Source: Candidatus Nitrotoga sp. CP45
GTDB taxonomy: Bacteria > Pseudomonadota > Gammaproteobacteria > Burkholderiales > Gallionellaceae
DNA: 64,000 bases
Direction: 5' to 3'
NCBI GenBank assembly: GCA_003402375.1
Contig: QFXJ01000053.1
Coordinates: 4,182-68,181, forward strand
Position numbers and translations under genes: made by a program. The notes beneath the pieces were generated by a model, which saw nothing but the letters and a program-made list of their open reading frames with translations, did not search any database and was not told the DNA's origin. Shown in pieces: positions 9,728-56,094 of this stretch. How positions within the stretch are numbered: the first letter of the stretch is position 1; each line of letters starts with the position of its first letter.

Positions 9728-10593
9728 TACTTGATCGTTGCCAGATAAGCGGCAAACTCTTCACCCAGTTCTGGATGCTTAAGGCCGAATGCCACCGTTG
9801 CCTTGAGATAGCCCAGCTTGGAGCCACAATCGTAACGAATACCGTTAAACCGGTATGCCAGCACTTTTTCTTCTTTTATCAGCGCTGAAATCCCATCGGT
9901 CAGCTGAATTTCACCCCCCGCGCCCGCCTGTAACTTCGCCAAGTGATGAAAAATACGCGGCGTCAACACATAACGTCCCACCACCGCCAGAGTGGAAGGC
10001 GCATCTGCCGGGCTGGGCTTTTCAACGATGGCATGTACCTGCTCCACACTCTGCTCCAGATTGCTACTACTGACTATGCCATAGTGACCCGTCTGTGAAG
10101 GGGGTACGTCCTCCACGCCAAGCACGGAACATTGGTAGCGCTGGTATACGTCTGCCATCTGTTTAATGATGGATATGTCCCCGGCGATCAAATCATCAGC
10201 CAAAATCACCGCAAACGGTTCGTTGTGCACCACCGGCTGCGCGCACAGAACTGCATGACCGAGGCCAAGCGTTTCTGACTGACGGATGTAGATGCAATTC
10301 ACATGTTTGGGAATCACTTCCTGAACTGCACGTAACAGCTCGCTCTTGCCGCGCGCGAAAAGTTCAGCCTCAATCTCATAAGCCGTATCGAAATGGTCCT
10401 CAATAGCGCGTTTGTTACGGCCAGTGATGAACACCATATCCGTAATACCCGCCGCCACCGCCTCTTCCACCGCATACTGGATTAACGGTTTGTCGACTAC
10501 CGGCATCATTTCTTTGGGACTAGCCTTGGTGGCGGGCAGGAAACGGCTGCCCAATCCAGCGACCGGAAATACAGCTTTAGTAATTTTAGTCAT
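9727..10593 (-). CDS. galU: UTP-glucose-1-phosphate uridylyltransferase
   Basis: [51 protein letters not shown]. Confidence 0.97.
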
Positions 10594-38349: not shown

Positions 38350-39543
38350 TTATATGTACAGCCCGCGTGCCAGATCGGTCTGGATATCACCCACAGCTTC
38401 CAAGCCGACCGCAATGCGCAGTAAACCCTCGGTAATACCCGCTGCATCTCTGGCCTCCTGAGTTATGCGGGCATGCGTGGTGGTGGCTGGGTGAGTTAAC
38501 GTGGTCTTGGTATCGCCCAAGTTAGCCGTAATTGAAACCATGCGCGTACTATCAATAAGACGCCAAGCCTTTTCTCTGCCACCTTTTATTTCGAACGATA
38601 CGATACCGCCACCAGCCTTCTGCTGCTTCATCGCCAATTCATGTTGTGGATGCGACGGCAGACCCGGGTAGTACACGCGTGCCACATTATCCTGCGCCTC
38701 CAACCATTGCGCCACGGACAGCGCATTAGCGCTATGCGCATCCATACGAATTTTCAACGTCTCCATTCCTTTCAGGAATACCCAAGCGTTGAATGCGCTC
38801 ATAGTCGGCCCCGCCGTACGCAGAAATTGATATATGGGCTCTAACACTTTCTTGCTACCCAACACCGCACCGCCTAATACACGTCCTTGTCCATCAAGAT
38901 ATTTAGTGGCGGAATGAATCACAATGTCCGCGCCTAAGTCTAGCGGGCGCTGCAACGCGGGGGTGCAAAAACAATTGTCTACTGCCAACAACACACCTCG
39001 CTGCTTCGCCACTGCCGCAATGCCTGCAATATCGGATATTTCGGTAAGGGGATTGGACGGCGTCTCCAGAAAAAATAGCCGTGTGTTGGGTCGTACCGCA
39101 ACTTCCCACTCATTCACATCGGTGGCAGAAACAAAGGTCGTGTCCACACCAAAACGTTTGAAGATGGTGCCGAATAAATTTACCGTCGAACCGAATATAC
39201 TGCGCGAAGCAACGATGTGATCTCCATTTTTCAGCAAACCCATACAGCACGCCAAAATCGCCGACATACCTGACGCCGTCGCCACACACTGCTCCGCGCC
39301 TTCCAGCGCGGCCAAGCGCTCCTCGAACATAGTAACGGTAGGGTTGGTAAAACGCGAATAGATGTTACCCGGCTCTGCGCCGATAAAGCGTGCAGCGGCT
39401 TGGGCCGCGCTATCGAACACGTAACTGGAAGTAAGAAACAGTGCCTCACTATGTTCATTAAATTGGCTGCGCTTTATGCCCGCGTGTACTGCAAGTGTTT
39501 CAAGTTGATATGAATGTTCTGTTTGGCTGGAATGTTCTGACAT
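38350..39543 (-). CDS. metZ: O-succinylhomoserine sulfhydrylase
   Basis: YSRFTNPT, ASGMSAI, HSATKYLDGQGR, NLGDTKTT.THPATTTH. Confidence 0.94.
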   Translation of the reverse strand: MSEHSSQTEHSYQLETLAVHAGIKRSQFNEHSEALFLTSSYVFDSAAQAAARFIGAEPGNIYSRFTNPTVTMFEERLAALEGAEQCVATASGMSAILACCMGLLKNGDHIVASRSIFGSTVNLFGTIFKRFGVDTTFVSATDVNEWEVAVRPNTRLFFLETPSNPLTEISDIAGIAAVAKQRGVLLAVDNCFCTPALQRPLDLGADIVIHSATKYLDGQGRVLGGAVLGSKKVLEPIYQFLRTAGPTMSAFNAWVFLKGMETLKIRMDAHSANALSVAQWLEAQDNVARVYYPGLPSHPQHELAMKQQKAGGGIVSFEIKGGREKAWRLIDSTRMVSITANLGDTKTTLTHPATTTHARITQEARDAAGITEGLLRIAVGLEAVGDIQTDLARGLYI

Positions 39544-39564: not shown

Positions 39565-39596
39565 AAAAAACCCGGTTAGCTTACAGCTAAACCGGG
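39565..39596 (-). terminator. Intrinsic terminator in the metZ leader (riboswitch expression platform)
   Basis: CCCGGUUUAGC-UGUAA-GCUAACCGGG followed by U6. Confidence 0.8.
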
Positions 39597-39601
39597 CTTC
39601 A

Positions 39602-39656
39602 CCCGCTTTAGCTGTATTTATAAAGCGCCCGCAAGCTGTTCCTCAAATCGGCGCTT
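39602..39656 (-). ncRNA. SAM-II riboswitch aptamer
   Basis: Minus strand GCGCCGAUUUG..UUGCGGGCGC..AUAAAUACAGCUAAA matches the remembered SAM-II pattern GCGCUGAUUU..UUGC..GCGC..AUAAAUGUAGCUAAA; upstream of metZ. Confidence 0.85.
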
Positions 39657-39962
39657 ATATGAAACTAACACTTGCCGCGCCGCGTTGTCAACTCCAATTG
39701 CCATGATACTAGAGGGCACCGCTAAAGGCATCCAGGCTGTGTAATATGAAGTAATCAGCCTCAAGCATTAGTCTCACAAAGTGCTGGAATGCAGAACATT
39801 ATTTCAGGTATTCTTTAAGCAGGAGGTGCGCTACACTAAAATAGTCGATGTAACACTTTATTATCGCTGTTGCATTTCGAATTTAAATCCGCGCTACCTC
39901 TTATAAGGGTATAAATCCTTGCGGCGTTCAAAATGCAGGAATTAATCAACGGAGAAAATGCC

Positions 39963-43065: not shown

Positions 43066-44721
43066 TCAAAAACCATATTTCATCTCCGCAAACAATAACG
43101 AGTTATCCCGCAACCGACCAAAGAACGTACTACTTTCTCCTCGGTAAATATCCAATCCAAGCGATCCTTTAACGTTGTCTGTAAAGGCATAAACCAGCTT
43201 GGGCCTTATGAAATAATTGCTGCGTCCAAAAGAAGCGACAGCGGCAATTTCACCTTCCAACGTTTCATTAAGCCATTTGTTACTGGCCCGGACACTTACC
43301 CCATGCTGAGAACGGCTAAACTGATTCCATAGCGCACTTGTTTGAATTGCGGCGAAACGCAGGAGAGGATCGGCTATCGCCTGCGGGTCGGAATAATTTG
43401 TAACATGGCGGAGGTAATATTGAAAATTGACATTAAGATAATCGAAAAAAGTTCTGTCACCGCCCATCACCATATAGAAAAATGGCTTTTTTACAAGAAA
43501 ATCATTCGCACCAGTGTTAACTGTCCAAGTGTACGCGGCTTCAGCACGCAATCCATAACGCCCAATGACCGTAGCGGCATCCATGCCCAATACGCGGATA
43601 CGATTGTGGTCAAATATTAAATTTGCTCCAGATGGGGTTATCGCTCCAATCGCGATGTCAGGGGTCAAATCTGACCCATTATAGTAAGAGGCTGACCAAT
43701 CCACATCACCGCCACTTCGATCGAATTTGAGCGCAATTCGGTTAGTACGGGGAATGTGTTGGGTAAAAAAAACACCCGGCGTTGTAGTAACCGGAAAGAC
43801 ATGGGGATCCATACCAGGGAGCCATATACCGGTCAGCGAATTTTCATGCGAGTGGTACGTTGCTTTCGCTGCCAACGATCCTATTCTCTGGTCATCCTCT
43901 TCCGGCGTTAACAACGTAAAATTTCGTGGTGTCAGATTGTCGGTTGGATTCAAGCGATCTGCCCGTCCCCATACTATGATCTGTCTGCCGATCCGATAAT
44001 CCACATTACCGCTACTGAATTTTATATATCCCTCCTGTAATTTTTTCGAATCTCCGTTGGCTCTGAAAATGTCGTCATTACGAATCCATCCCTGAGCAAC
44101 CAGAGTAACGTCCTCCCCTATATTTTGCGTCCCTTTAAGCCACAACGAACCGGTACCCAAATCATTTTTCCCATCCAGCTTACGCGATGAACTGAAATAT
44201 CCTGCACGAACCGAACCAGTTATATCCGGTTTTTGTAAAAAACTCATACTATCTTTTTCAGTTGACCCCGAAAAACTCTCTGCCTGCGGGAGCAAAGTGT
44301 TGGCCACTGGTTTCAATTCAAAATTAAATTCGCGAATAGTTAAACCGTGCGGAACACAGTGTGCTTTTAGCTGAAGTGTCAACGAATGTGCACTGATTGG
44401 AGCCGCTGTAGAGATTTTAATTCGCTGGTCAATATTGTTATTGCCTTCCAACTCCAATCTTGCAGCGGACAATTCCGATCCATTTTGCCCGGGAACAATC
44501 CCTGCATCAACCAATGAAACACAAGCGGCGGTTATTTTTTCATCAGGGCTTGACGGGGATACCGAAACATACGCGAGCAGCGGTTCGCCTTCCCTGCTGA
44601 CAACCTCAATCTCACCTATGATCAGCGCATGAGCCGCCTGTGTACAGAGCAATGCAAAAATAATTGCCAATGATAAAGCACGCCCTACACGACATAAAAT
44701 GCTAACGCACATTTGCGGCAT
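43066..44721 (-). CDS. Predicted outer-membrane beta-barrel (DUF1302-like) with N-terminal FimV-like extension
   Basis: Signal peptide ending AHA; LIIGEIEVVSREGEPL; barrel motifs RIGRQIIVWGRAD..NPTD and terminal MKYGF. Confidence 0.6.
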   Translation of the reverse strand: MPQMCVSILCRVGRALSLAIIFALLCTQAAHALIIGEIEVVSREGEPLLAYVSVSPSSPDEKITAACVSLVDAGIVPGQNGSELSAARLELEGNNNIDQRIKISTAAPISAHSLTLQLKAHCVPHGLTIREFNFELKPVANTLLPQAESFSGSTEKDSMSFLQKPDITGSVRAGYFSSSRKLDGKNDLGTGSLWLKGTQNIGEDVTLVAQGWIRNDDIFRANGDSKKLQEGYIKFSSGNVDYRIGRQIIVWGRADRLNPTDNLTPRNFTLLTPEEDDQRIGSLAAKATYHSHENSLTGIWLPGMDPHVFPVTTTPGVFFTQHIPRTNRIALKFDRSGGDVDWSASYYNGSDLTPDIAIGAITPSGANLIFDHNRIRVLGMDAATVIGRYGLRAEAAYTWTVNTGANDFLVKKPFFYMVMGGDRTFFDYLNVNFQYYLRHVTNYSDPQAIADPLLRFAAIQTSALWNQFSRSQHGVSVRASNKWLNETLEGEIAAVASFGRSNYFIRPKLVYAFTDNVKGSLGLDIYRGESSTFFGRLRDNSLLFAEMKYGF

Positions 44722-47700
44722 TATTCTTTTTCCATGTACCGTGTCGTAAAGAACTCATCCTTAACCCGCTGGTTCGCCTTGAAGTTATCGTATTTAATCA
44801 CCGTACGGTGGCCGGTCTGAACATTGCTTGCTTCAAGGCGCATGGCCTGCCACTTACCACGCGTCTTGTCTACCAGTTGAACATCAGTAAATGTCGAGAT
44901 TTTTAACATCTGCCCTGCCTCATCCCAATACTCCATTTTTATGGCCACCAAATTATCTTTACGCAGCCAGCCGATGCGCTTCGAGTAACCATTACTGGTT
45001 TTAACCGCGTCAGATTTTGGTAATGCCTCGATAACGTAGCAAAGCTGCCCCTCTACCGACTCCTCTTTCAACAGCTTGTAATTCCACTCTCCCACCTTAT
45101 AACCAATCACGTCGGCATAAGAAAAATCCGTGCCCACAAAACTATCTTTTTTATTGTTGGAAACAAGACGCCGCACTTTTTTTAGCGCGGGTAGATAGAT
45201 CCAAATGTCATCATCCTTATCGGCGTGTTCGATCAGCAGCGATACCGTACCTTTTACATCCGGTGGTGACAAAAACCGCGTCATGCGCATGTTATCAATG
45301 CCATTTTCCTCAAGCTTGGTCGCGCCGAAAGTCTTGCGCACCCGTTCCTGACCATTCTTGTTAATCAGGGTAAACGTGGCATCAGCCACTGAATCAGCAA
45401 CCTTGGAAACGACGAAATTTTTTTCCATGATCTGGCCCAGATTGGGTTCCGCCGCCCAGCCATTTTTGGGTTGCATTGATAGACCAAAAACAAGAGCCAA
45501 CACAACAACAGAAACAGGCAATGGGTTATGTTTCACGGCAATTCTCCTGAAAATAAAATCGGGGCGGAATGTAAGAATAAGCGCGGGGATAAGCAACAGC
45601 GCAGATAGCGAACTCATGATCATGGCCTCAGCAATCAAAATGGCCAACCACTTATGGATATTATACCCAAACGATAACAACAACACCCCGTAACCAGCTG
45701 ACACCGAAATCGCAACAAATAGAATAGCTTGCCCCGCTGTTCCAATAACATTTCGGACAGCTGTGATTTCATCGGTTCCCATCATAAGCTCTTCGCGTAA
45801 CCGGTAGATCAGGTAGATTGCGTAATCCGCCCCTATGCCAACGGCCATCGCCGAAATAAGCGAAGTTGAAATATTCAGCGGGATTCCACTCCATCCCATA
45901 AGACCAAAGTTAGCCAAAACAGCAACCAGAAGCGGGAGAAGCACCAGCATTCCTGCTACCAATGAACGGAAAATCAAGCTGGAAATAATAAAAACGACAA
46001 CCGTGATTTGCAGAATATTGAGTATTTTCCCGTAAACCATAACCTCATTCAGTGCTGCACCTTGAGGGACACTGCCACCGATTCCGATATGCACACTTTT
46101 ATCGAAATGCAGCGCTGTGAATGCTTGAATTTTTTCGACCAGCTTTTCTATGTAGGCACTGCTATCTGTCTTCAAGAAAACCGTCAGATTGGCGGAGCGG
46201 TAGCCATAATCAACATAGGAATCAAAATCGCCCGGTTCGCCGGACATTGAGTAAAGCAATAAATATTGTGAAATCAATTCCTGACTGTCTGGAATTTTAT
46301 AATAAGCGGGATCATCCCCGTGCATGGCCTGGTTCATACGCATGATAAAGTCGGCTAGCGAAAGGGTCTTACCGACATAAGGCTGATTTTCAAGAAAACG
46401 TTGCAGCTCCCCTATGGCCCGAAGAGTTTTGGGATCTTTAATGGCGTCGTCACCTGCGCCTTCAACCAGCAAATACATCGTATTAGTACCGCCAAGGCGA
46501 TCATTCAGTGCTTTATCATCTGTTTCAAAAATCAATTCAGGAGAAAAAAAACTCTTGGTAGAGTTATCCACAGTAACCTTCCCCATCCCTATCAGGGTAA
46601 TAATGACGAAAAGCAAAACCCCGCCATACACCCTGCGCCGACTGGTGCCGGTTACCCAGTTCGCTATCGCGTTGGTTACTTTGTCCCAAATCCGTTTTTT
46701 TTGTCCACGCTTTCTTTCAATATCACTTGGTGGAGCAAGTATTGAACGCAAGGCCGGAATAAAAGTCATTTCAAGAATCAATGCCGCAAGAATTCCAATA
46801 CCGGTAAAAATTCCAAAAGTACGCACCGTGCTAATCTTAAAAATTACCAAAGAAAAAAATCCCAAAGAAGCGACCGCTCCGGCAGCAATCATGACCGGCC
46901 CAACGCGGAGAAGAGAGGAAATAACGGCTTGATTATTTGCAACCTTGGGCGAAAGATCCGTTGTTTCTCGTAAGCGGAAATAGTCTTCGTAATAGCGCTT
47001 AAGCAACTGCACCGCATGGCCTGTTGCCACCGCCAGAATCAAAATAGGGGTCGCGGAATTAAACACATCCATTGGAATGCCAGAAGCGCCCATCACGCCG
47101 ACCCCCCAAGCGACAGCCAAACCCGCTGTAACCAATGGCAAAATAAGCCCTTGCTTCGTGCGAAAGGCTTCAAAAAGAACCAGGCTCAAAACTAAAATAG
47201 CGATGGGGAAAAGAAATCCAATACGCTCTGAATAAATTTCAATACGGGCCAGAAAACTCGGAATTCCCCCCACGTTAATTTCAATTCGAGAATCCCGTTC
47301 ATGCTCAACAACAGCCTCCACTTTATCCATGATTGCCCGGAAACCACCCGGCCCGTCCTTAAACTCTACGAGAATAGCTGTTGTTTTCGCATCAGCAGAC
47401 ACAATAGAATTCAAATAAACAGGATTCTTCTCGACTGCCCCTCTTAGTTCAGTAAGTTGCGCGGCCGTAGCTGGAACCTTCGACATTAACGGCTTGACTT
47501 CCAAACCTTCTGCCGTACCGGCAATATTTTTGGCGCGTTTCGAAGAAAGACTCAACAGGTTTTCTTTAACCACACCGGGCGTCTGAAGAAAAGCCGCCGT
47601 CATGCGCTGGATTTTTTCCAAAATCAGAGGCTGATAAATATCACCCTCTTTAGGAGTGACCCCCACCATAACAACATACTTCGACCCAAAAACCTTTTCC

Positions 47701-47867
47701 ACCAAATTACTCGTCGTCACATAGGGATGAGACTGGGGAAGCATGGTATTCGGATCAATAATGATATTCAGATTTTTTGCCTGAATAACTGCTGCAATGG
47801 TGACAATTAACGTCAAAGCAATGACTACAAACCGATAGCGAAGAATCCATTCTATGTAGCGTTGCAT
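44721..47867 (-). CDS. MMPL/RND-family transporter fused to a C-terminal LolA-like lipoprotein-sorting domain
   Basis: Two MMPL TM repeats (AVATGHAVQ, AVGIGADYAIY); C-terminal F.SP.DVKGT..L..DDDIWIYLPALKKVRR..SFVGTDFSY.D. Confidence 0.85.
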   Translation of the reverse strand: MQRYIEWILRYRFVVIALTLIVTIAAVIQAKNLNIIIDPNTMLPQSHPYVTTSNLVEKVFGSKYVVMVGVTPKEGDIYQPLILEKIQRMTAAFLQTPGVVKENLLSLSSKRAKNIAGTAEGLEVKPLMSKVPATAAQLTELRGAVEKNPVYLNSIVSADAKTTAILVEFKDGPGGFRAIMDKVEAVVEHERDSRIEINVGGIPSFLARIEIYSERIGFLFPIAILVLSLVLFEAFRTKQGLILPLVTAGLAVAWGVGVMGASGIPMDVFNSATPILILAVATGHAVQLLKRYYEDYFRLRETTDLSPKVANNQAVISSLLRVGPVMIAAGAVASLGFFSLVIFKISTVRTFGIFTGIGILAALILEMTFIPALRSILAPPSDIERKRGQKKRIWDKVTNAIANWVTGTSRRRVYGGVLLFVIITLIGMGKVTVDNSTKSFFSPELIFETDDKALNDRLGGTNTMYLLVEGAGDDAIKDPKTLRAIGELQRFLENQPYVGKTLSLADFIMRMNQAMHGDDPAYYKIPDSQELISQYLLLYSMSGEPGDFDSYVDYGYRSANLTVFLKTDSSAYIEKLVEKIQAFTALHFDKSVHIGIGGSVPQGAALNEVMVYGKILNILQITVVVFIISSLIFRSLVAGMLVLLPLLVAVLANFGLMGWSGIPLNISTSLISAMAVGIGADYAIYLIYRLREELMMGTDEITAVRNVIGTAGQAILFVAISVSAGYGVLLLSFGYNIHKWLAILIAEAMIMSSLSALLLIPALILTFRPDFIFRRIAVKHNPLPVSVVVLALVFGLSMQPKNGWAAEPNLGQIMEKNFVVSKVADSVADATFTLINKNGQERVRKTFGATKLEENGIDNMRMTRFLSPPDVKGTVSLLIEHADKDDDIWIYLPALKKVRRLVSNNKKDSFVGTDFSYADVIGYKVGEWNYKLLKEESVEGQLCYVIEALPKSDAVKTSNGYSKRIGWLRKDNLVAIKMEYWDEAGQMLKISTFTDVQLVDKTRGKWQAMRLEASNVQTGHRTVIKYDNFKANQRVKDEFFTTRYMEKE

Positions 47868-48086
47868 ATTTACCTCTTTGCTAATCAGGTGACCGGAGTT
47901 ATTCAAGAGTTGATGCTATTGAAACCGGCATGCTCGATTCAATGTCGGCTGGGAGGCATTATATTGCCTCCGTCTGATGATTGATGAGTCAGTAGCTTAT
48001 GTATATTCGGAACTTGCAGATGAATCTTTAACTTATGCGGCTAAACTAATTTTAGTTGAATACCCGCCTTGCTCAAGCCGTTACTT

Positions 48087-48953
48087 TTATTTGCTGGCCT
48101 TTTCTAGCCGTTTCTTCGCTACAAAGCTTTTCAGCCGTTGCAGCGGATTACGGTTACCCAGCCACAACTGGCGGTGATGAAAACGGTTAAGACGGGCATC
48201 CAGGTAGGTGTACCAAGGCGTCAATTTCAACTCTTGCGGATGCAACAGAACTAACAGCGCTTGGGTGGTAATGAAGCCCGCACACAGCTTGCAACCGGCA
48301 ATTGAGCTGGGGCCCTTGCGCGCCTTCAGGTTGATGGATTGCGGATCCAGATATTTAAGATGGTGCATCTCCGGGGCAAAGCCCAAAGCGAACTGGATGA
48401 TCTTTTCCTCTTCGCTCATTTCTGGGGAAATGGCAAAGTAATCTTCATAAGACATGCCCCCCGGCCCAAATGCCAACACCCCTGCCCCCAACCCCAAAGG
48501 TATCGCCGCCACGGTGAAAAGTCCCCGTGCTGTAGCCGAATTAATCAATAACGGATGCATATCCACCGCAAACACATCCATGCCATCAACGGCCAGATCC
48601 ACACCTGAAAGAAATGCGTCAATATTATTCGCATCAAGGCCTTTGTCGAAAATTTTTACACGTAATTCCGGATTGATTTCCAAAGCATATTCCAGCATTA
48701 CCTCAATCTTGCGGCGGCCCAACGTGCGTGTGTTAGCCCCATACTGTCGGTTGAAATTAGCCAGCTCAAATTCATCAAACTCAGCAATGTGAAATCCACC
48801 CACCCCGGCGCGCACCAAACTAATGAGGTAATCCCCGCCCACACCGCCCATGCCTGCAATAGCTACGGTGGATCGTTGCAGACGCGCATGCTCATCCAAA
48901 CTGACGCAACCCAAGTTGCGGCTGAAAGCGCTGCCATAGTCAAATTCAGTCAT
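48087..48953 (-). CDS. Stand-alone ThiF/E1-family adenylyltransferase
   Basis: AFSRNLG, VAIAGMGGVGG, FDEFELANFNRQ, DLAVDGMD; no nitroreductase domain. Confidence 0.85.
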   Translation of the reverse strand: MTEFDYGSAFSRNLGCVSLDEHARLQRSTVAIAGMGGVGGDYLISLVRAGVGGFHIAEFDEFELANFNRQYGANTRTLGRRKIEVMLEYALEINPELRVKIFDKGLDANNIDAFLSGVDLAVDGMDVFAVDMHPLLINSATARGLFTVAAIPLGLGAGVLAFGPGGMSYEDYFAISPEMSEEEKIIQFALGFAPEMHHLKYLDPQSINLKARKGPSSIAGCKLCAGFITTQALLVLLHPQELKLTPWYTYLDARLNRFHHRQLWLGNRNPLQRLKSFVAKKRLEKASK

Positions 48954-49087
48954 TAAAGGCCTTTTATTAAAGGGATGGGCAAGTAGGGAATATGCATATT
49001 TACGCAGTAAAGTGGAAATTGCAAGAGTCTTGAATGCAACATTGGCCGGAAATAACAGCAATCTTTAACTTTATGTGAAATACCGCT

Positions 49088-49104
49088 TGTCGAAAAAATT
49101 TACA
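49088..49104 (+). promoter_or_regulatory. Candidate PrsR enhancer (TGT-N11-ACA containing TTTACA)
   Basis: TGTCGAAAAAATTTACA about 62 bp upstream of the sigma54 site of the PEP-CTERM gene. Confidence 0.75.
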
Positions 49105-49165
49105 TTTTTTAACATTTAATTCAGCCAATGCATTAATATTTATTATTAATCAATATATTATATAA

Positions 49166-49182
49166 TTGGCACGATATATGCT
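49166..49182 (+). promoter_or_regulatory. Sigma54 -24/-12 promoter
   Basis: TTGGCACGATATATGCT (GG-N10-GC). Confidence 0.8.
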
Positions 49183-49266
49183 TTAATAAGCCTAAGGTAA
49201 ATAGCCTTGAATTATATGGGTTACAAAAAGCGTTAAATTACAATAATTAATATCAGGAGAACGGTT

Positions 49267-50043
49267 ATGAAACTTAATAAAATTGCAGCCACGATGATTT
49301 TAGCATCGCTTGGGTTTACCAGCTTAAATGCTCAAGCTGTGACAGTTGATGGCATTACTTGGGATCCTAATAGCTTTTTCGATTTCAGTTCTACTACTAA
49401 TCTTTTTGAAATTACGAGTGGAACGGCAGGCGCTGAAATTAGTGGTTACGGCATGGTAACTTCTCTTAATTCACTGTTAGGTTTTGCTGCTCCTGGAAGG
49501 GAATTGACTTATCAATTTGGTGGTTTTATCTTAAATGCTGCCACTACTGTCAGCCCTTTTGGAACTGGTATCAACGCAGATGGTAGCTTTTCTTTCACTG
49601 GAGGCTGGCTCAAAGTGTTTTCGGATGCATCAGCAGACTTTAATGCTCTTGTAAAAAGCACTTCTGGAGATGGTACACTTTGGCTCGACATGTTGGCCAA
49701 TACTACAGCACTCTCGCCTAATACCTTGACTGGAACAGTCACCGGACAAAATAGCGTTGGCCTAACCGGTCAAGGTACTGGTTATTTTGATGTTGTCGGT
49801 GGCTCTGCCGCTGTTTATGTAAATACCAATACTCAACCTGGATTATCTGATTTCACATATACATCCTCGTTCCAAGCTCTTAACGCTCCCATTATTAATG
49901 GCGGGGTAGTAGTAGCTAATGCTTTTGGTACGAATGAACTTTACGGTCAATCAGTTAATGTTCCTGAGCCAACCAGTATTGCTCTGCTAGGTTTAGGCTT
50001 GTTGGGTCTAGGTTTTAGTCGCCGCAATAAAAAATCTGCATAA
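49267..50043 (+). CDS. PEP-CTERM sorting-domain protein (possibly PepA-like)
   Basis: Signal peptide, G/T/S-rich body, C-terminal VPEPTSIALLGLGLLGLGFSRRNKK. Confidence 0.96.
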   Translation: MKLNKIAATMILASLGFTSLNAQAVTVDGITWDPNSFFDFSSTTNLFEITSGTAGAEISGYGMVTSLNSLLGFAAPGRELTYQFGGFILNAATTVSPFGTGINADGSFSFTGGWLKVFSDASADFNALVKSTSGDGTLWLDMLANTTALSPNTLTGTVTGQNSVGLTGQGTGYFDVVGGSAAVYVNTNTQPGLSDFTYTSSFQALNAPIINGGVVVANAFGTNELYGQSVNVPEPTSIALLGLGLLGLGFSRRNKKSA

Positions 50044-50059
50044 CCTGTGCTTTATTCAT

Positions 50060-50093
50060 AAAAAAGCCGCGCAGGTATCTGTGCGGCTTTTTT
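50060..50093. terminator. Bidirectional intrinsic terminator
   Basis: aaaaaagccgcgcag-gtat-ctgtgcggctttttt between convergent genes. Confidence 0.85.
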
Positions 50094-50303
50094 AATTCGA
50101 ATAATTTCTATGAAGGCTCAATAGAGCCGGACGATGGCTTTCATCCTAAATCTTACTTGGTAAATCGGAAGAAAATTTTAAGCTGAATCTTCATTGATTG
50201 GCCGTACCTCATAGCACACGCGCCCTTGTCTGCCAAGAAACAAGGTCAAATAGCAAATACTACGCTTTTGGCATAAACCCGATAGAAAATTAATGTGACT
50301 TAC

Positions 50304-51017
50304 TTAACAAGTAAGCGCTACGTCCTGAAAAAAACTGGGTCTGAAATGCGATAGACAGGTGTCACGGTTAGCCAAGACTGATTTAACAACATGAACACCG
50401 ATGAGATAGGGTTGTCGCGGGGGTTGAACTGCGGTATTGAGAGGGCCAGCCGCTTGAAATGGAAAACCGATCCGAATGAGCAACCGCGCCAAAGACGGCT
50501 CCATGGCTGCGTAACAATGAGTAAGGCCATGTTTGTTAGCCAGCTTGAATATTTCGTTATATAAACCCATAGCCACGAGCGGACCATCTTGTTTGTCCGT
50601 CACGCTCGCAGGATGCGGTCGCTGTACTGGTGTCTGATGTAACCCAGCACTCGAAAGCTCACCTCGGTTCCGACGCAATTCTTTAGCAATAGCTAAACGA
50701 CCAATTTCACCAGACTGGTCAGATGAGTTGAGTATCTGGTGGGTTGTTGGGTAACGGGATGTAATGCTTAATCCTTTGGCATTGGGCAGAATTAACCGTG
50801 AACAACCAGCAGCAGCACCCGTTTCCAATGAACGGCACAGCACGTGTACACTGTGCGCGTCGTATGCATCACTCTCCAGCGGAACATCACTGAAAAACCG
50901 GTTGATACTGGGCACACGTTTCAGCTCTTCACAGAAGACTTTATGTCGCAGAGCAAGATAGTCCCGGTATGCTCGGGTACCTGGCGTCACTATGGAATAT
51001 ACAAATTTATTTTCCAC
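50304..51017 (-). CDS. PEP-CTERM/exosortase-associated acyltransferase (N-acyl amino acid synthase-like), copy 2
   Basis: LRHKVFCEE, E.DAYD..S.H, GEIGRLAI, YAAMEP.L.RLL..G.PF, RQPY. Start moved to GTG 51017 because the annotated ATG lies within a sigma54 site. Confidence 0.85.
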   Translation of the reverse strand: MENKFVYSIVTPGTRAYRDYLALRHKVFCEELKRVPSINRFFSDVPLESDAYDAHSVHVLCRSLETGAAAGCSRLILPNAKGLSITSRYPTTHQILNSSDQSGEIGRLAIAKELRRNRGELSSAGLHQTPVQRPHPASVTDKQDGPLVAMGLYNEIFKLANKHGLTHCYAAMEPSLARLLIRIGFPFQAAGPLNTAVQPPRQPYLIGVHVVKSVLANRDTCLSHFRPSFFQDVALTC

Positions 51018-51065
51018 TCTACCATAATCCTTTATAAATACAGCAATACATTCTAGTATTTGTAA

Positions 51066-51083
51066 AGCATTAATCATGCCACA
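51066..51083 (-). promoter_or_regulatory. Candidate sigma54 promoter
   Basis: Minus strand TGTGGCATGATTAATGCT (GG-N10-GC). Confidence 0.6.
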
Positions 51084-51142
51084 TATATATTCCCATTAAA
51101 AACATAGCATTAAAGTATGTGTATATTTACAGTAATGATATG

Positions 51143-51224
51143 TGTCGTTATATGGCGACATAAAATCATGTAAATAACTAATTCGTTGAAATTAAAGTAA
51201 TATTTTTGTCTCAAAAAAGAGACA
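51143..51224. promoter_or_regulatory. Two TGT-N12-ACA palindromes (candidate enhancer sites)
   Basis: TGTCGTTATATGGCGACA (51143-51160) and TGTCTCAAAAAAGAGACA (51207-51224). Confidence 0.45.
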
Positions 51225-51406
51225 AATTTAAATTCTAAGAATGTATTTTAGTACATAGGGTATTGATAAATAAGTACATATTATAAAATATCATGACATT
51301 GATCATTCAAATTCGGATAGAAATTTGGCTATATTGCACTTACAACATCTCAATCCAGATTTTAGAACAGGGTTCGCGTCAGGCTGATTCTATATCAGTC
51401 TAAATA

Positions 51407-52174
51407 TTAGAGGGGGGCGCGGGGAGGAGAATCGTTCGTATTTTGCGCTTGTAAAAAACTAAGGGTTTGCGTTCCGCGCTGACTTAAGCTGCGTTCCATC
51501 TCAAATGCACTGATAAGATAGACCCGCCTGGGAGGCTGGACATTCTCATTAATGGGCCCAACCGGGACACATGGAAACCCCAATGTATTGAGAAGTCGGC
51601 TAAAACGGTTATCCATCGCCGCCATACAGTATTTAATATTTTCTTGCTGGCATAGCAGATAAATTTCCCGGTATATACCTAAAACCAGTTCCGGTTGGCG
51701 TCGACGGTTTTTTTCAGGTTGATAGATCATTTCGGGTTCAGGATCGCCCTGAAATGGTTTGCCTTTGTCCTCTTGCCGACGTCGAAATTCAGGGGCAATG
51801 GCCATGCGGGAGATTTCGCCAATATTTGCATCGGTCGCATCTGGGTAGGGTAAGGGGCGGTAAATGACGTATCTGGGAGTCACATTTAACCCAGTGGGGT
51901 TGGGAAGAATGACTCGGGCTGACGCTGCGGAGATACCGGTGGATTTGTGGTAGGCCATGAAGTGGCGACTGTATGGATCATATTGGTCAGTCTCCATGAA
52001 CCGGCCATTGCTGGAAAGTGGACATGAGGATGGAACAATGCGTTGAAGTTCTTTGCAAAAAATTTCATAACGGAATTCAAGATAAAGTTCATAAGCAGGG
52101 GTGCCCAGCACGACCTCCTCGAAACGAAAATAGACGGTTTCCATACTAGACACCTTAGTCTCACTCGTGTTCAT
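51407..52174 (-). CDS. PEP-CTERM/exosortase-associated acyltransferase (N-acyl amino acid synthase-like), copy 1
   Basis: FRYEIFCKE, ETDQYDPYSRH, GEISRMAIAPEFRRR, MAAMDNRFSRLL..GFP. Confidence 0.87.
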   Translation of the reverse strand: MNTSETKVSSMETVYFRFEEVVLGTPAYELYLEFRYEIFCKELQRIVPSSCPLSSNGRFMETDQYDPYSRHFMAYHKSTGISAASARVILPNPTGLNVTPRYVIYRPLPYPDATDANIGEISRMAIAPEFRRRQEDKGKPFQGDPEPEMIYQPEKNRRRQPELVLGIYREIYLLCQQENIKYCMAAMDNRFSRLLNTLGFPCVPVGPINENVQPPRRVYLISAFEMERSLSQRGTQTLSFLQAQNTNDSPPRAPL

Positions 52175-52965
52175 GCTTTTTCTCCGGTGATGATAAATAC
52201 ACCACCAGCAATTAATTGATGCCCACCCGCTACTTTCTGGGACAAATCATCAAATAACTGCATGATGTCGACAGTATTCCCTAACAGAGAAGCCTTGTAA
52301 CCTAGCAGGATATTAAACAGTACGTTGAAAGGTAATTCGCTGCTGGTAAGCGCAAGGATACGACTCTTGACGTTAACAAACCCTGCATCGGTCATCATGT
52401 GATGCAGTTTACGGCCGATGAAGCGATCCCCCCCTTGTTCAGCTTGGGTTATCTGGGCTGTGCGCAGAATTTGACTGACGCGCTGATCCTCAGGATAGAA
52501 AACGACTAAACCATCGTCGGAATCAACAGCGCAGAAGCGCCCACCTGGCCGCATGACCCGATGGATTTCCGAAATCACAGTTTCGGGCTGTGGAATGTGC
52601 TGAAGGACGAACCGGGCATAAGAAAAATCGATGCTGCTGTCCGGGACGGGCAATTGGGATCCATAGGCCTGAATTGGATACAAACCACAGGCAGGCTTAT
52701 TGCGAACATTGCCTTCCACCTGAGCCAGCAAAGTGCGGCTTGGCTCAACTACATATAGGCTACCCTCTGGTGCCAGTTCAGCCAGCAGGTCAGAAACAAA
52801 TCCAGGGCCACAACCCAATTCAAGCACATTGTGCCCGGACTGAATGCCTGCCGAACGTAATATACCGGCCTCCATGCCACGAACTGCTTGGGCTTGCTGG
52901 CGCAGCCGCTCAGCTTGGAAAGCAGTGTCATTTAACGTTTCAAAGTGGTAGGAACCTGTACTCAT
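52171..52965 (-). CDS. Class I SAM-dependent methyltransferase
   Basis: VLELGCGPG, DFSYARFVLQH, RVMRPGG, D.FIGRKL; ATGA-coupled to the acyltransferase. Confidence 0.9.
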   Translation of the reverse strand: MSTGSYHFETLNDTAFQAERLRQQAQAVRGMEAGILRSAGIQSGHNVLELGCGPGFVSDLLAELAPEGSLYVVEPSRTLLAQVEGNVRNKPACGLYPIQAYGSQLPVPDSSIDFSYARFVLQHIPQPETVISEIHRVMRPGGRFCAVDSDDGLVVFYPEDQRVSQILRTAQITQAEQGGDRFIGRKLHHMMTDAGFVNVKSRILALTSSELPFNVLFNILLGYKASLLGNTVDIMQLFDDLSQKVAGGHQLIAGGVFIITGEKA

Positions 52966-53310
52966 GTTGTGGCCATGTCGAATGCCGAGCCTGACCAATA
53001 ACCAACATGGCTTGTGTCAGAATGCAATTCGTTCGTTGTCGATATTCATGCTATCGGCAACAACGCAAAATAACTTGATACATGAGCGATAATTTATTTT
53101 TACTTAAAGATACAGCCCGGCATCGCACGCAAAAAACAATGGAACCAGCATTTTTAGGGGTATGATGAACCCACTATTACATCACTGGTTTCTTTTTTGT
53201 TTATCCCATTGCTACATTGCCACCTGCCCGTTCTTTTGCAATAAACTTTCGATTACTACAACCATGCATGGTGTAACGGAGACAGCGTAAAACGCCACTG
53301 TCACCACCCA

Positions 53311-56094
53311 CTACAACTGCTTTAGCAATGTTTTTGCTTCCTCAACCTGGGGAAAAGTTTTTCCGGTAGCCAGAATTTGCTCCAATTCTTTACGTGCCTT
53401 GACCTTGTCCCCAGATTTGACCAATGCCAACACTAGATGATAACGAATAGCGAGTGCTTCCGGCGCCACGCTGGCGGCCTTTTGTAGAAGCGGCAAACCA
53501 CGCGTTATGTTGCCTTGTTCCACCAACATCCAACCCAAGGTGTCGAGTATTGCCGGATTGTCAGGAGCAAGTTGGTTGGCTTTCTCGGCATATTCCAAGG
53601 CACGGGGATCTTTTTCCTGTTGATAGAGCCAAGCAAGATTGTTCAATGCCGGAATATTTTTTGCATTTTGCTGCAACACAGCTTGGTATTGTTCGATAGC
53701 GGCTTTATTCTGCTTGCTGGCAAGATAAATTCCTGCCTGATACATTCTGGCAGTGACATCGGCAGGATGTTCTTTTAGCCACTGAGCCAAGCGGATGTCT
53801 GCTGCCTTACCTTTACCGGCTTGGCCTAGGGAAGCGTGCAATTTCACCATGAGCGAACCATTTTTGCTGACAGTAAATGCCTGTTCATAGGCCTTCACCG
53901 CTAGATCAGGTTTTTTTTGCGCCATCAGCACGTCACCTTCTAACTCAAAGCCCACAGAAGATTTAAGGTTTTTTTTCTGAACTTGCCGGGCAATTGTGAG
54001 AGCTTGCTCATAATTACCCTTTTTGGCCTCCAAGGAGGCCAAAGCTAATTGTGCTTCCAAATAATCCGGTTGCAATGATAATGATTTTTTGAGAGCGTCC
54101 GATGCTGCCGACTCGTTCTGCATTGCCATGTGAACCGTAGCGATGAAAAATTGGGCAGGGGCAGAGTCCGGCTTCATGGCGGCAAGCCTAGTGTAGGTTT
54201 CCAAAGCAGCCGGTTTGTCGTCATTAGCAAATTGGGCTTGCGCCAGAATATTCAGAACCTCTGGGCTGCTGGAGTTGGAGCCTTGAAGTTTTTGGGCATA
54301 GATAAGTGCCTTTTGTTTTTCACCTATGCGTAAATAATGAGTTGCCAATAGCATAGCCGGCTGCAATGCATCCGGGTTTTCTTTACTGGCATTTTCTAGC
54401 CAAGTAGTCGCTTCCTTGGTCTGCCCTTGAGAGAGAGCAAGATTGGCCAGTGCGGTCATGACTTGAGAGTTTTTCTTGTCTTTTTCGAGCATAGCCTCAA
54501 GGCGCTTTTTCGCCACTTCTGGCTTTTTGTCCCTCAAATCAAGTTGCACCAAATTCATCACAGCAGGTAAATTGGCAGGTTGAATAGAAAGCGCTTTTTC
54601 AAAGCTCGCGCGTGCGGCAGCACTATCATTTTTGCCCAAATAAGCAGCGCCTTTCAGGTTGTAAACAACGGGGCTGTCAGGCTGTTCTTTTTCAAGAGCC
54701 TTTACTGCTGTGAGTGCCTTATCATATTCTTTAAGACGAAGGTGGGTCATCACCAACAAAACACCTGCCTTAGGTGATTTGGTGTCCATTGCTGCTGCTG
54801 TTTCCATTTCAGCCACTGCACGGTCATTCTCACCTAGCGCCAATCTGCTTAAGCCTAGAGCGCTATGCAGTTCTGCCGCTTTCGGCGCAAGGGCACTAGC
54901 CTTTGCAAAATATTCCGTCGCCTTTGTGTAGTCCCCGGCCTGCATATATAATTCACCCGCAAGTGCCAGTAATTGGATATCGTCTTGTTGCACGGCTTTA
55001 AGCGCTGGCGCCAATACATCAATTGCGTTTTGTGTACGGTGGCTTTTTAGCAACGTAGATGCCATCAATTTACGCGCATAGACATTACCCGGATCCCTTT
55101 CCAGATATTTCTTCAAATGTTGTTCGGCTTGCGGCAGTGACCCAAGTGCCAACTGCACGGCTCCTGCCAGCAGAACACTAGGCATATGTTCTGGCGCTGC
55201 CCGTAGAACTTTCTGCAACGATTCCAATGCTGCCGCATGCTTCCCTTGGCGGAAATCAAGCAATGCTTGCGCATAGAAAATGATTAAACTATTCGGCGAT
55301 GTTTTGCGTGCCGCGTCAATATCTCCTTGGGCTAAATCGAATTTCCCCGCCTCAATTTCCAAAAAAGCCTTATTGATATGTGCTGAGTTATTGTCCGGCT
55401 GCAATTTCAAAGCTTGGTCATAAGCAGCAAGAGCAAGCTCAACTTTTCCTTGGGCACGCAGAAAATCACCTTTAAAAAGAACAACATCCGTGTTTTGTGG
55501 ATTTTTGGTTACAGCTTGCTCGGTAAAGCCTGTTGCGGCATCGATATTTTTCTCCGTAATCGAATGCCTAGCTAACCCGATAAGCGCGTCCGGGAAATCA
55601 GGTTTATTCTTCAGGGCCTGCTCAAACGATTCCTTGGCTTCCTGGCCTTTGCCTAAAGCTAAATAAGCATTGCCACGCGAGACTAATATTTCAGCAGATT
55701 CTTTTTCTCCTGGAACCTGCTTAATTTCATCCAAAACCGCCTGAAATTTCCCTTGCATAAGCAAAGATTTACCCAAATCAGGCGACACCTTAGCGGGATT
55801 CATTCCCAAACTCAAAGCCTTACGAAGTTCTTTCTCAGCTGAAGGAAAATCCGCAGTTTCATTGTAGATAGTACCCAAGATATAACGGACTTCAGCATCT
55901 TCCGGGGTTTTTTGTAACGCATTTTTTAATTGAATAATAGCGGCCTTGTTATCACCCTTCTGTTGATACTGTTTTGCTTCAGCAACCAGCGTCTCTGAGG
56001 TCTGCGTTTTACCGCAGGCGGTCATGCCACCCATGCACAGGATCGTTACAGAAACTATTACAGTGATTATTTTTTGCCTGTTTATGTTTAGCAT
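53311..56094 (-). CDS. prsT: PEP-CTERM system TPR-repeat (lipo)protein PrsT
   Basis: MTACG lipobox-like, AAIIQLKNALQ, many TPRs, LNNLAWLY, ILDTLGW. Confidence 0.92.
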   Translation of the reverse strand: MLNINRQKIITVIVSVTILCMGGMTACGKTQTSETLVAEAKQYQQKGDNKAAIIQLKNALQKTPEDAEVRYILGTIYNETADFPSAEKELRKALSLGMNPAKVSPDLGKSLLMQGKFQAVLDEIKQVPGEKESAEILVSRGNAYLALGKGQEAKESFEQALKNKPDFPDALIGLARHSITEKNIDAATGFTEQAVTKNPQNTDVVLFKGDFLRAQGKVELALAAYDQALKLQPDNNSAHINKAFLEIEAGKFDLAQGDIDAARKTSPNSLIIFYAQALLDFRQGKHAAALESLQKVLRAAPEHMPSVLLAGAVQLALGSLPQAEQHLKKYLERDPGNVYARKLMASTLLKSHRTQNAIDVLAPALKAVQQDDIQLLALAGELYMQAGDYTKATEYFAKASALAPKAAELHSALGLSRLALGENDRAVAEMETAAAMDTKSPKAGVLLVMTHLRLKEYDKALTAVKALEKEQPDSPVVYNLKGAAYLGKNDSAAARASFEKALSIQPANLPAVMNLVQLDLRDKKPEVAKKRLEAMLEKDKKNSQVMTALANLALSQGQTKEATTWLENASKENPDALQPAMLLATHYLRIGEKQKALIYAQKLQGSNSSSPEVLNILAQAQFANDDKPAALETYTRLAAMKPDSAPAQFFIATVHMAMQNESAASDALKKSLSLQPDYLEAQLALASLEAKKGNYEQALTIARQVQKKNLKSSVGFELEGDVLMAQKKPDLAVKAYEQAFTVSKNGSLMVKLHASLGQAGKGKAADIRLAQWLKEHPADVTARMYQAGIYLASKQNKAAIEQYQAVLQQNAKNIPALNNLAWLYQQEKDPRALEYAEKANQLAPDNPAILDTLGWMLVEQGNITRGLPLLQKAASVAPEALAIRYHLVLALVKSGDKVKARKELEQILATGKTFPQVEEAKTLLKQL

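Follow-up and report, generated by a model that had tools for sequence, protein, structure and literature searches.

Introduction

Why should genes that appear equipped to build, activate and export an acylated amino acid lie wrapped around the gene for a PEP-CTERM surface protein? The question is raised by a stretch of 64,000 nucleotides from Candidatus Nitrotoga sp. CP45 (GenBank assembly GCA_003402375.1, contig QFXJ01000053.1, positions 4,182 to 68,181 of the forward strand), hereafter the window. Its minus strand encodes a methyltransferase (MT), two acyltransferases (AT1 and AT2), a stand-alone ThiF-family adenylating enzyme, a fusion of an MMPL transporter with a LolA-like domain, and an outer-membrane β-barrel; among them, on the plus strand, is the gene for a PepA-like PEP-CTERM protein. 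These seven genes had been called in an original prediction made from the DNA letters, and the open reading frame (ORF) list and domain searches place all of them where they were predicted, with the domains assigned to them. The genome consists of 2.8 Mb in 59 contigs, is estimated to be 100% complete, and the proteins of the window are closest to those of the metagenome-assembled genomes (MAGs) of Ca. Nitrotoga sp. LAW and MKT, at 96–98% identity.

Many bacteria of the environment and of wastewater, nitrifiers such as Nitrotoga among them, form flocs and biofilms by means of exosortase/PEP-CTERM systems, and floc formation by nitrite oxidizers matters for the retention of biomass in water treatment. 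We know of no account since 2006 of the partner to which sorted PEP-CTERM proteins are attached, nor of one since 2011 of why N-acyl amino acid synthases (NAS) travel with the exosortase system. Our analysis points, with a probability that we put at about 0.6, to a methyltransferase variant of the acyl-oxazolone/N-acyl amino acid lipid pathway that has its own envelope exporter and resides inside an XrtA exosortase locus.

A ThiF enzyme without an oxidase

Two pathways provide the frame for this proposal, namely the OxzA/OxzB oxazolone synthetase of Pseudoalteromonas rubra described by de Rond et al. (bioRxiv 10.1101/2020.06.11.147165) and TyzA/TyzB/TyzC of Mycobacterium tuberculosis, the genes of which lie beside mmpL9 (PMC10404671). 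Both require a flavin-dependent oxidase of the nitroreductase superfamily that is fused to ThiF or encoded next to it (bioRxiv 10.1101/2020.06.11.147165; PMC10404671). The ThiF of the window (48087..48953, minus strand; PF00899) falls, in keeping with the original prediction, into the family of the OxzB/TyzB cyclases, scoring 344 bits against NF006077/PRK08223, for which the cut-off is 266 bits, and it retains the motifs for nucleotide binding (GxGGVGG, NFNRQ, K and DxxD). It aligns solely to the ThiF part of the ThiF-nitroreductase models NF011424 and NF011425 and has no second domain. The ORF extends to TTG 49061 (48087-49061, 324 aa), and the protein was thus considered as a possible fusion remnant; the 36 extra N-terminal codons are, however, unconserved, and relatives and family models alike start at ATG 48953, so we take ThiF to be a protein of 288 aa.

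The original prediction had described this enzyme as lacking the oxidase, and the description holds for the cluster and for the whole genome. Nothing in the genome matched positions 305-679 of NF011424, which are the nitroreductase part of the model, and a tblastn search of the genome with three OxzB/TyzC-type nitroreductases from related loci gave a best E of 0.6. A nitroreductase hidden elsewhere was thus rejected on both the profile and the tblastn searches, and the lack of the oxidase applies to the organism, not to the cluster alone.

MT and nitroreductase are mutually exclusive in the sampled loci. The ThiF-probed sample comprised 26 loci from species-representative genomes, 20 from an order-wide survey of 301 genomes and 3 from metagenome assemblies. 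A nitroreductase was found in 0 of 17 MT-type loci, and in all MT-type loci with sufficient flank MT is present and nitroreductase absent; the other loci of the 43-row tree have a nitroreductase in 20/26 cases and MT in 0/26. In the same maximum-likelihood tree, the MT-type ThiFs form a single clade (SH-aLRT 100) with a stem of 1.37 and very short internal branches, separated from the OxzB-type clade by 28 fixed differences. Identity among MT-type ThiFs is 83–92% across families, compared with ~45% to OxzB-type ThiF domains. Among proteins of known structure, the closest in sequence to this ThiF are E1 adenylation domains, TcdA, ThiF and MoeB, and no solved structure of an OxzB/TyzB-type ThiF was found for a comparison of substrate pockets. 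PRK08223-type ThiFs occur in 55 of the 301 genomes of the order-wide sample, the MT-type in only three.

A methyltransferase cassette conserved across families

The class I S-adenosylmethionine (SAM)-dependent MT (52171..52998, minus strand; Methyltransf_11, 4.4e-19) has 275 aa if read from a TTG; an alternative ATG start at 52965, the end coordinate of the originally predicted region, would give 264 aa. Its nearest solved structure is 3MGG, itself an uncharacterised MT. Orthologues from Betaproteobacteria are 67–97% identical to it, and the one from a Chromatiales MAG is 43% identical. MT and AT1 are translationally coupled through an ATGA overlap, in agreement with the coupling predicted earlier.

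Gene order and orthology indicate that MT, AT1, AT2 and ThiF constitute a cassette that spans at least five betaproteobacterial families as well as the Chromatiales MAG. Loci with the arrangement MT-AT1-(AT2)-(PEP-CTERM)-ThiF are found in Nitrotoga, Sulfuricella, Sulfurimicrobium, Rugosibacter, a Methylophilaceae MAG, Thauera and Hydrogenophaga, and since the order is found in many genomes, it is not due to chance. In the Chromatiales MAG, all four genes are orthologous (MT 43%, ThiF 58%, AT1 47%, AT2 38%) and directly follow a PrsT-like gene. The adjacency of MT and AT1 holds in every MT-type locus with sufficient flank, rearranged ones included, with the exception of this MAG (L068), where ThiF sits between the two. 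The acyltransferases adjoin ThiF in most MT-type loci, and in all that have sufficient flank. AT2 is absent from two loci (Rugosibacter and one Sulfurimicrobium), so the minimal set is MT, AT1 and ThiF. The notion that these genes act as a functional unit thus gains from their co-occurrence in other genomes: MT-AT1-AT2-ThiF is kept from Nitrotoga to the Chromatiales MAG, and it comes with an exporter that has two non-orthologous forms and is arranged with it in shuffled orders.

In one long-read MAG (JADKHS010000016; L006/L063), AT2, the fusion and the barrel are broken into several frames. Four other Nitrotoga genomes have these genes intact, and the splits are therefore probably long-read indel errors, not real pseudogenes.

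Two acyltransferases

AT1 (51407..52174, minus strand; 255 aa; PF13444, 1.9e-8) and AT2 (50304..51077, minus strand; 257 aa; PF13444, 2.9e-12) are 36% identical and separated by a gap of 330 nt. Against TIGR03694, the exosortase-associated acyltransferase model with a curated cut-off of 111.95 bits, AT2 scores 124.9 bits and belongs to this NAS family, and AT1, for which TIGR03694 is the only such match, scores 103.0 bits, slightly below the cut-off, and appears to be a divergent member. Scores of AT1 and AT2 proteins (101–126 bits) are well under those of canonical members from the same order (200–278 bits), and the sub-group that they form occurs only alongside the MT-type cassette. Across the order-wide sample, ThiF and TIGR03694 co-occur above expectation (20/55 versus 24/246 genomes; odds ratio 5.3, uncorrected for phylogeny). 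In a profile search, the nearest solved fold is that of the acyl-homoserine lactone (AHL) synthases; a link to FeeM through its PDB sequence was dropped, as the phmmer match was spurious and the profile search reached AHL synthases, not FeeM. Elsewhere in the genome there are weak TIGR03694-like matches at C8:7761-8096 (45.7 bits) and C12:78612-79061 (30.9 bits), which may be other GNAT- or LuxI-like acyltransferases.

A putative exporter

Behind ThiF lies a gene that joins an MMPL (HAE3-like RND) transporter and a LolA-like domain of the periplasm in one protein (44721..47906, minus strand; 1061 aa; MMPL 9e-48, LolA_like 1.8e-55). The pump part scores 163 bits with Pfam MMPL, above the cut-off, and its best NCBIfam match, HAE3 model TIGR00921, reaches 228 bits, under the cut-off of 351.9. 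The LolA-type part, at ~44727-45290, is above the cut-offs of both LolA_like PF17131 (187.9 bits) and DUF1329 (51 bits). The true start is probably ATG 47867, not TTG 47906, because relatives begin with MQRYIEW. The 180-nt gap between ThiF and the fusion (47906-48087) contains a hairpin, GGAGGCA-N6-TGCCTCC, without a T-tail.

A transmembrane scan shows a 13th hydrophobic segment in the fusion (residues 789-813, ~45468-45542), which looks like a retained signal peptide of the LolA-like protein (KHNPLPVSVVVLALVFGLSMQPKNGWA/AEP; …GWA/AEP). In Ca. Nitrotoga sp. HW29, a frameshift exactly at the junction (L064, ~10360-10420) splits pump from carrier, the latter keeping in its frame the valine codon that lies at 45536 of the window and is GTG there. 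Given the signal-like segment and this frameshift, the LolA-like domain may be released by signal peptidase or translated separately. The fused form is confined to the Nitrotoga lineage, at 80–98% identity.

The start of the barrel gene (OMP551; 43066..44721, minus strand; 551 aa) overlaps the stop of the fusion by 1 nt. Besides a signal peptide, the protein carries a FimV_N Ig-like domain at its N-terminal end (4.9e-7), a DUF1302 match of 19.9 bits, which is below the cut-off of 23.2, and the C-terminus ...KYGF, of which the final aromatic residue is conserved in 18/18 homologues. An AlphaFold model built with 18 homologues is all-beta, and the best 50 Foldseek matches to it are all outer-membrane barrels; its pLDDT is 49.8, so we count the model as weak support. 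Together with the signal peptide and the terminal F, it supports the predicted barrel short of proof.

The three-part architecture appears to have been kept, or recruited twice, beside the same cassette. In Sulfuricella-type loci, three separate genes lie behind ThiF, encoding a LolA_like protein, a 455-aa protein with an aromatic C-terminus (OMP455) and an MMPL pump (MMPL768); this set is 21–27% identical to the Nitrotoga fusion and OMP551, compared with 87–90% for the adjoining ThiFs. In one further genome (G058) and in Hydrogenophaga, the exporter genes sit between AT2-ThiF and MT-AT1. Within the Nitrotoga lineage, fusion and OMP551 are constant and the neighbouring cassette varies: they lie beside the MT type in this genome, beside a ThiF and nitroreductase cassette at one locus (L060) and beside a FeeM-type synthase with an OxzB-clade ThiF in Ca. 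Nitrotoga sp. HW29. Other exporters occupy the same position elsewhere, with OEP/ABC/FtsX genes in Methylobacter, where they are paired with MT-ThiF-NAS, and MacB-like permeases in Dechloromonas. Taken together, this gene neighbourhood makes a functional link between exporter and cassette likely. Large VanZ-domain proteins of up to 1117 aa are also found repeatedly beside the exporter or prsT (L011 16907-20260, L034, L038, L053 and L040 3877-5097).

The exosortase setting and the PEP-CTERM gene

The cluster is flanked on one side by ruvC-ruvA-ruvB on the plus strand and on the other by the PrsT/PrsK/PrsR block. This adjoining XrtA/PEP-CTERM regulatory block encodes PrsT, the XrtA/PEP-CTERM system TPR lipoprotein (53311..56094, minus strand; TIGR02917, 974 bits), a TviB-like dehydrogenase, the priming glycosyltransferase EpsB_2, PrsK and PrsR; the gene for XrtA is on a different contig (C46; 357 bits). 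The cassette fills the slot immediately downstream of prsT. In sister genomes, namely another Nitrotoga species (genome G300; L040, 8143-12806) and G084 (L053), the same slot holds a different cassette, made up of a pair of acyltransferases resembling OxzA together with ThiF, a nitroreductase of the Acg/Rv1355c type and PepA. A gene for an HprK-related kinase A (TIGR04352) is present ~1.2 kb downstream of pepA at these two sister-genome loci. Away from the cluster, the window also has a SAM_alpha (SAM-II type) riboswitch at 39587-39664 on the minus strand (37.4 bits; gathering score 36), and the gene that it precedes encodes O-succinylhomoserine sulfhydrylase (38350-39543).

The PepA-like protein (49267..50043, plus strand; 258 aa) has a signal peptide and a C-terminal VPEP...TM...RRNKK sorting signal (PF07589, 1.3e-7), and scores 57.9 bits with floc_PepA, below the cut-off of 80. 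A predicted sigma-54 type -24/-12 promoter, TGGCACGATATATGCT, precedes its gene (49167..49182, plus strand) and is kept upstream of the orthologue in 9/9 loci that have the gene. A second promoter of this type, TGGCATGATTAATGCT, is predicted before AT2 (51066..51081, minus strand), overlapping its annotated start, and AT2 may possibly begin at GTG 51017 instead, downstream of its own promoter. This promoter is kept in 4/4 Nitrotoga-lineage loci and was not seen in the Sulfuricella or Hydrogenophaga loci. No sigma-54 promoters for MT-AT1 or for the ThiF-MMPL-OMP genes were found in the window or in relatives, and a generic sigma-54 scan of the window allowing two mismatches did not rise above chance. 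Upstream of the AT2 promoter, at 51205-51226, lies the perfect palindrome TTTGTCTC-N6-GAGACAAA, which could be an activator site or a terminator for MT-AT1. A shared activator palindrome of the form TTTGTC-N10-GACAAA was considered and rejected, the window count being 39 versus 36.8 expected from shuffles; as the perfect TTTGTC-type site occurs only before AT2, we claim no regulon-wide upstream activating sequence.

In three metatranscriptomes (sludge, wastewater and one labelled 'metagenome'), the PEP-CTERM gene has a word depth of 20–100, its neighbours one of 2–12. The PEP-CTERM transcript contigs begin at 49214-49225, just 3' of the predicted promoter, and the covered region is 49214-49980. 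ThiF is covered in four metatranscriptome runs, two of which also cover some of AT2, AT1 and MT; AT2, AT1, MT and PrsT are each covered in some runs, and the depth is 2–12 throughout. These are assembled contigs from strains that are 90–99% identical, and contig depth is a poor measure of expression; the cluster genes are probably transcribed, and the PEP-CTERM protein is probably a major product and likely a major floc protein of Nitrotoga. We think it more probable that its gene is a neighbour under shared regulation than that it belongs to the pathway, and the transfer of activated lipid to processed PEP-CTERM proteins, put forward in the original prediction, would be an unlikely further step to which nothing but the gene neighbourhood points.

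A proposed pathway and its alternatives

From gene content, protein families, the absent oxidase, conservation, cassette swapping and transcription, all of which are observed, we infer the chemical steps, the site of methylation and the direction of transport in the following scheme. In the cytoplasm, AT1 and AT2, as GNAT-type enzymes, would link a fatty acyl group from acyl carrier protein or coenzyme A to one or two amino acids. ThiF would then adenylate the free carboxylate with ATP and, after the manner of OxzB, TyzB and TcdA, most likely close it by way of the amide oxygen into a 5(4H)-oxazolone. With no flavin desaturase to conjugate the ring, the SAM-dependent MT would instead modify the amino-acid part or the ring. 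The MMPL pump would pull the lipid out of the inner membrane, the LolA-like domain, whether tethered or released, would shield it in the periplasm, and the 551-aa barrel would deliver it into or across the outer membrane. The PepA-like protein would be a highly expressed, sigma-54/PrsR-dependent exosortase substrate, co-located and partly co-regulated with the cassette. In a more specific version, which we regard as improbable, MT would replace the desaturase by trapping the saturated 5(4H)-oxazolone made by ThiF, either through O-methylation of its 5-hydroxy-oxazole tautomer or through C4-methylation; the resulting lipid heterocycle, of a class so far unreported from natural sources, would be placed in the outer membrane as the lipid partner of PEP-CTERM proteins, serving as anchor or acyl donor.

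Several points weigh against the proposed pathway. A saturated 5(4H)-oxazolone would be prone to hydrolysis. Tyz biosynthesis seems to place desaturation before cyclisation, the cyclase apparently coming last and working on the desaturated molecule (PMC10404671), so that a ThiF that lacks the oxidase may act in another way or do no more than adenylate. The substrate of the ThiF clade is deduced from relatives of ~45% identity, only some of which are characterised. AT1 falls just below the TIGR03694 cut-off and no acyltransferase matched FeeM in PDB, the OMP551 model is of low confidence, and the RNA data consist of contigs assembled from related strains, so that some carry-over of DNA is possible. 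Finally, fusion and barrel proteins of 80% identity are encoded at one locus (L066) among unrelated genes (RecQ, CDF, GAF and YaeQ) with no cassette nearby, and no exporter lies within 10 kb of the Chromatiales cassette; the pairing of exporter and cassette is thus frequent but not obligatory.

These last two exceptions are what would be expected if the MMPL, LolA-like and barrel genes were neighbours, not partners, of the cassette, either exporting or importing hydrophobic compounds in general or serving another part of the exosortase or exopolysaccharide machinery. Such a view also draws on LolA-like and OMP pairs that occur without an MMPL gene near several ThiF-nitroreductase loci and on the closest characterised analogue, AmeABCD, which handles monoterpenes (PMC6394551). 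We nevertheless consider it unlikely, as it sits poorly with two three-part sets of such low mutual identity beside the same cassette, with the interleaving of exporter and biosynthetic genes in G058 and Hydrogenophaga, with the exchange of three different NAS-ThiF cassettes beside the fixed Nitrotoga exporter, and with the other exporter types that hold this position in Methylobacter and Dechloromonas. The adenylating enzyme might, on the other hand, be the component that does not belong, activating the C-terminus of a protein or peptide as ThiF, MoeB and MccB do, in a process unrelated to the acyltransferases. Most characterised ThiF-family enzymes do act on polypeptide C-termini, this view can also call on the nearest solved sequences listed above, and the unusual conservation of the ThiF clade across families is as expected with a protein partner. 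Yet the cluster has no conserved gene for a ubiquitin-like protein or a small peptide, ThiF shares the PRK08223 family with small-molecule cyclases of the OxzB/TyzB type and has neither the second CxxC zinc motif nor the catalytic-Cys features that mark sulfur-transfer E1s, and NAS genes are linked to it in every examined locus with sufficient flank, which together make a protein substrate very improbable.

Two further alternatives accept the cassette and its exporter and differ from the proposed pathway in the fate of the product. The ThiF product, an acyl-adenylate or saturated oxazolone, might be exported as an activated donor that attaches an N-acyl-aminoacyl group covalently to processed PEP-CTERM proteins or to exopolysaccharide. 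Saturated azlactones are good acyl donors in general chemistry, we know of no acceptor for exosortases, and the cassette lies in the XrtA locus beside the PepA-like gene in at least nine loci with a conserved divergent promoter region; moreover, disruption of an exosortase-type NAS in Methylomonas LW13 removed the polysaccharide band (PMC11072679). The difficulty is one of location and stability: ThiF, MT and the acyltransferases are without signal peptides, so activation is cytoplasmic, and a labile oxazolone or adenylate must outlast both MMPL extraction and periplasmic transit. The idea also leaves MT with no evident role, the Chromatiales cassette has no recognisable PEP-CTERM gene next to it, and the sequence data are silent on protein lipidation; we thus find an exported donor distinctly unlikely. 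The product might instead be a diffusible signal of the acyl-amino-acid type, analogous to AHLs, which the exporter releases and which is sensed, for example by PrsK, to control floc formation. The AHL synthase-like fold of the acyltransferase profile, the likening of acyl-oxazolones to AHLs (PMC10404671), the presence of PrsK/PrsR, the ligand of which is not known, and the sigma-54 promoters of AT2 and the PEP-CTERM gene would all be in keeping with such a role. A three-part machine with a LolA-like chaperone and a barrel, however, suggests a poorly soluble long-chain lipid bound for the outer membrane, and no receptor gene is specifically linked to the cassette. Characterised exosortase-type NAS enzymes also reportedly yield long-chain products, as work by Craig and colleagues from 2011 is said to have found, and a signalling function is to our minds improbable.

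Relation to known systems

The Nitrotoga cluster resembles OxzAB and TyzABC in that genes for GNAT-type N-acyl amino acid synthases accompany one for a ThiF of the OxzB/TyzB family, and the likeness to TyzABC goes further, as TyzB too is a stand-alone ThiF and tyz adjoins an MMPL gene, mmpL9. It differs from both in having no oxidase/nitroreductase, and in possessing a SAM-dependent methyltransferase, two NAS paralogues, a ThiF from a separate clade and a three-part exporter. Since the oxidase that it lacks is one defining feature of these pathways, we do not class the cluster as a member of OxzAB/TyzABC. Versions of the OxzB type do, on the other hand, occupy the identical slot after prsT in the sister Nitrotoga species described above and in a Gallionellaceae genome. 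From the locus we would predict that the oxazolone-lipid pathways, themselves a recent discovery, include a further and new tailoring route.

The stieleriacine/N-acyl dehydrotyrosine clusters of Stieleria are also close in content: NAS, MT, ThiF and nitroreductase have been proposed to work there, and the role of ThiF was called 'enigmatic' by the authors, since no oxazolones were seen (PMC12479983). In both cases NAS gene(s), a methyltransferase and a ThiF-family protein occur together, and the stieleriacine products are methylated N-acyl amino acids. The Stieleria clusters are, however, planctomycetal, keep the nitroreductase and yield products with a 2,3-double bond; exosortase loci are not reported for them, and an exporter of LolA-like, MMPL and OMP parts is not described. 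With this gene set already proposed for stieleriacines (PMC12479983) and with tyz adjoining mmpL9 in M. tuberculosis (PMC10404671), the cluster is less singular than the original prediction implied.

For the exporter, the closest comparison is AmeABCD of Castellaniella defragrans, in which an HAE3 RND pump, a DUF1302 outer-membrane protein and a DUF1329 protein of the LolA superfamily serve in the efflux of hydrophobic compounds (PMC6394551). Both systems appear to follow one logic, in which an MMPL/HAE3-type pump, a LolA-fold periplasmic protein and an outer-membrane barrel would serve a hydrophobic cargo. In Nitrotoga, by contrast, pump and LolA-like domain are fused, the barrel is sub-threshold for DUF1302 and has the extra FimV_N Ig-like domain, and the cargo would presumably be an endogenous lipid, not a xenobiotic. 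No ORF for a fourth component like AmeC (COG4447/Ycf48-like) was found between ruvB and prsT. HpnN and the BstABC sterol transporters bear a more distant likeness to the Nitrotoga exporter.

In the literature that we searched, no functional link between ThiF and the PEP-CTERM system was found; 'UBA/THIF-type' genes are merely listed in a Rubrivivax biofilm cluster (PMC3684757). The points of note at this locus are the exchange of MT for the oxidase, the swapping of cassettes at a fixed exporter and the tie to the lipid question of exosortases, for which it offers a testable candidate in the form of a small gene set that can be expressed and deleted. In relation to the exosortase-associated acyltransferases of TIGR03694, AT2 lies above and AT1 slightly under the cut-off, PrsT, EpsB_2, PrsK and PrsR are in the locus and XrtA is in the genome. 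The published link between these acyltransferases and exosortases, on the other hand, involves no ThiF, methyltransferase or exporter, whereas the present comparison indicates that the synthases belong to larger cassettes, complete and exchangeable, in which a synthase and ThiF are combined with an oxidase or a methyltransferase, beside envelope-spanning lipid exporters.

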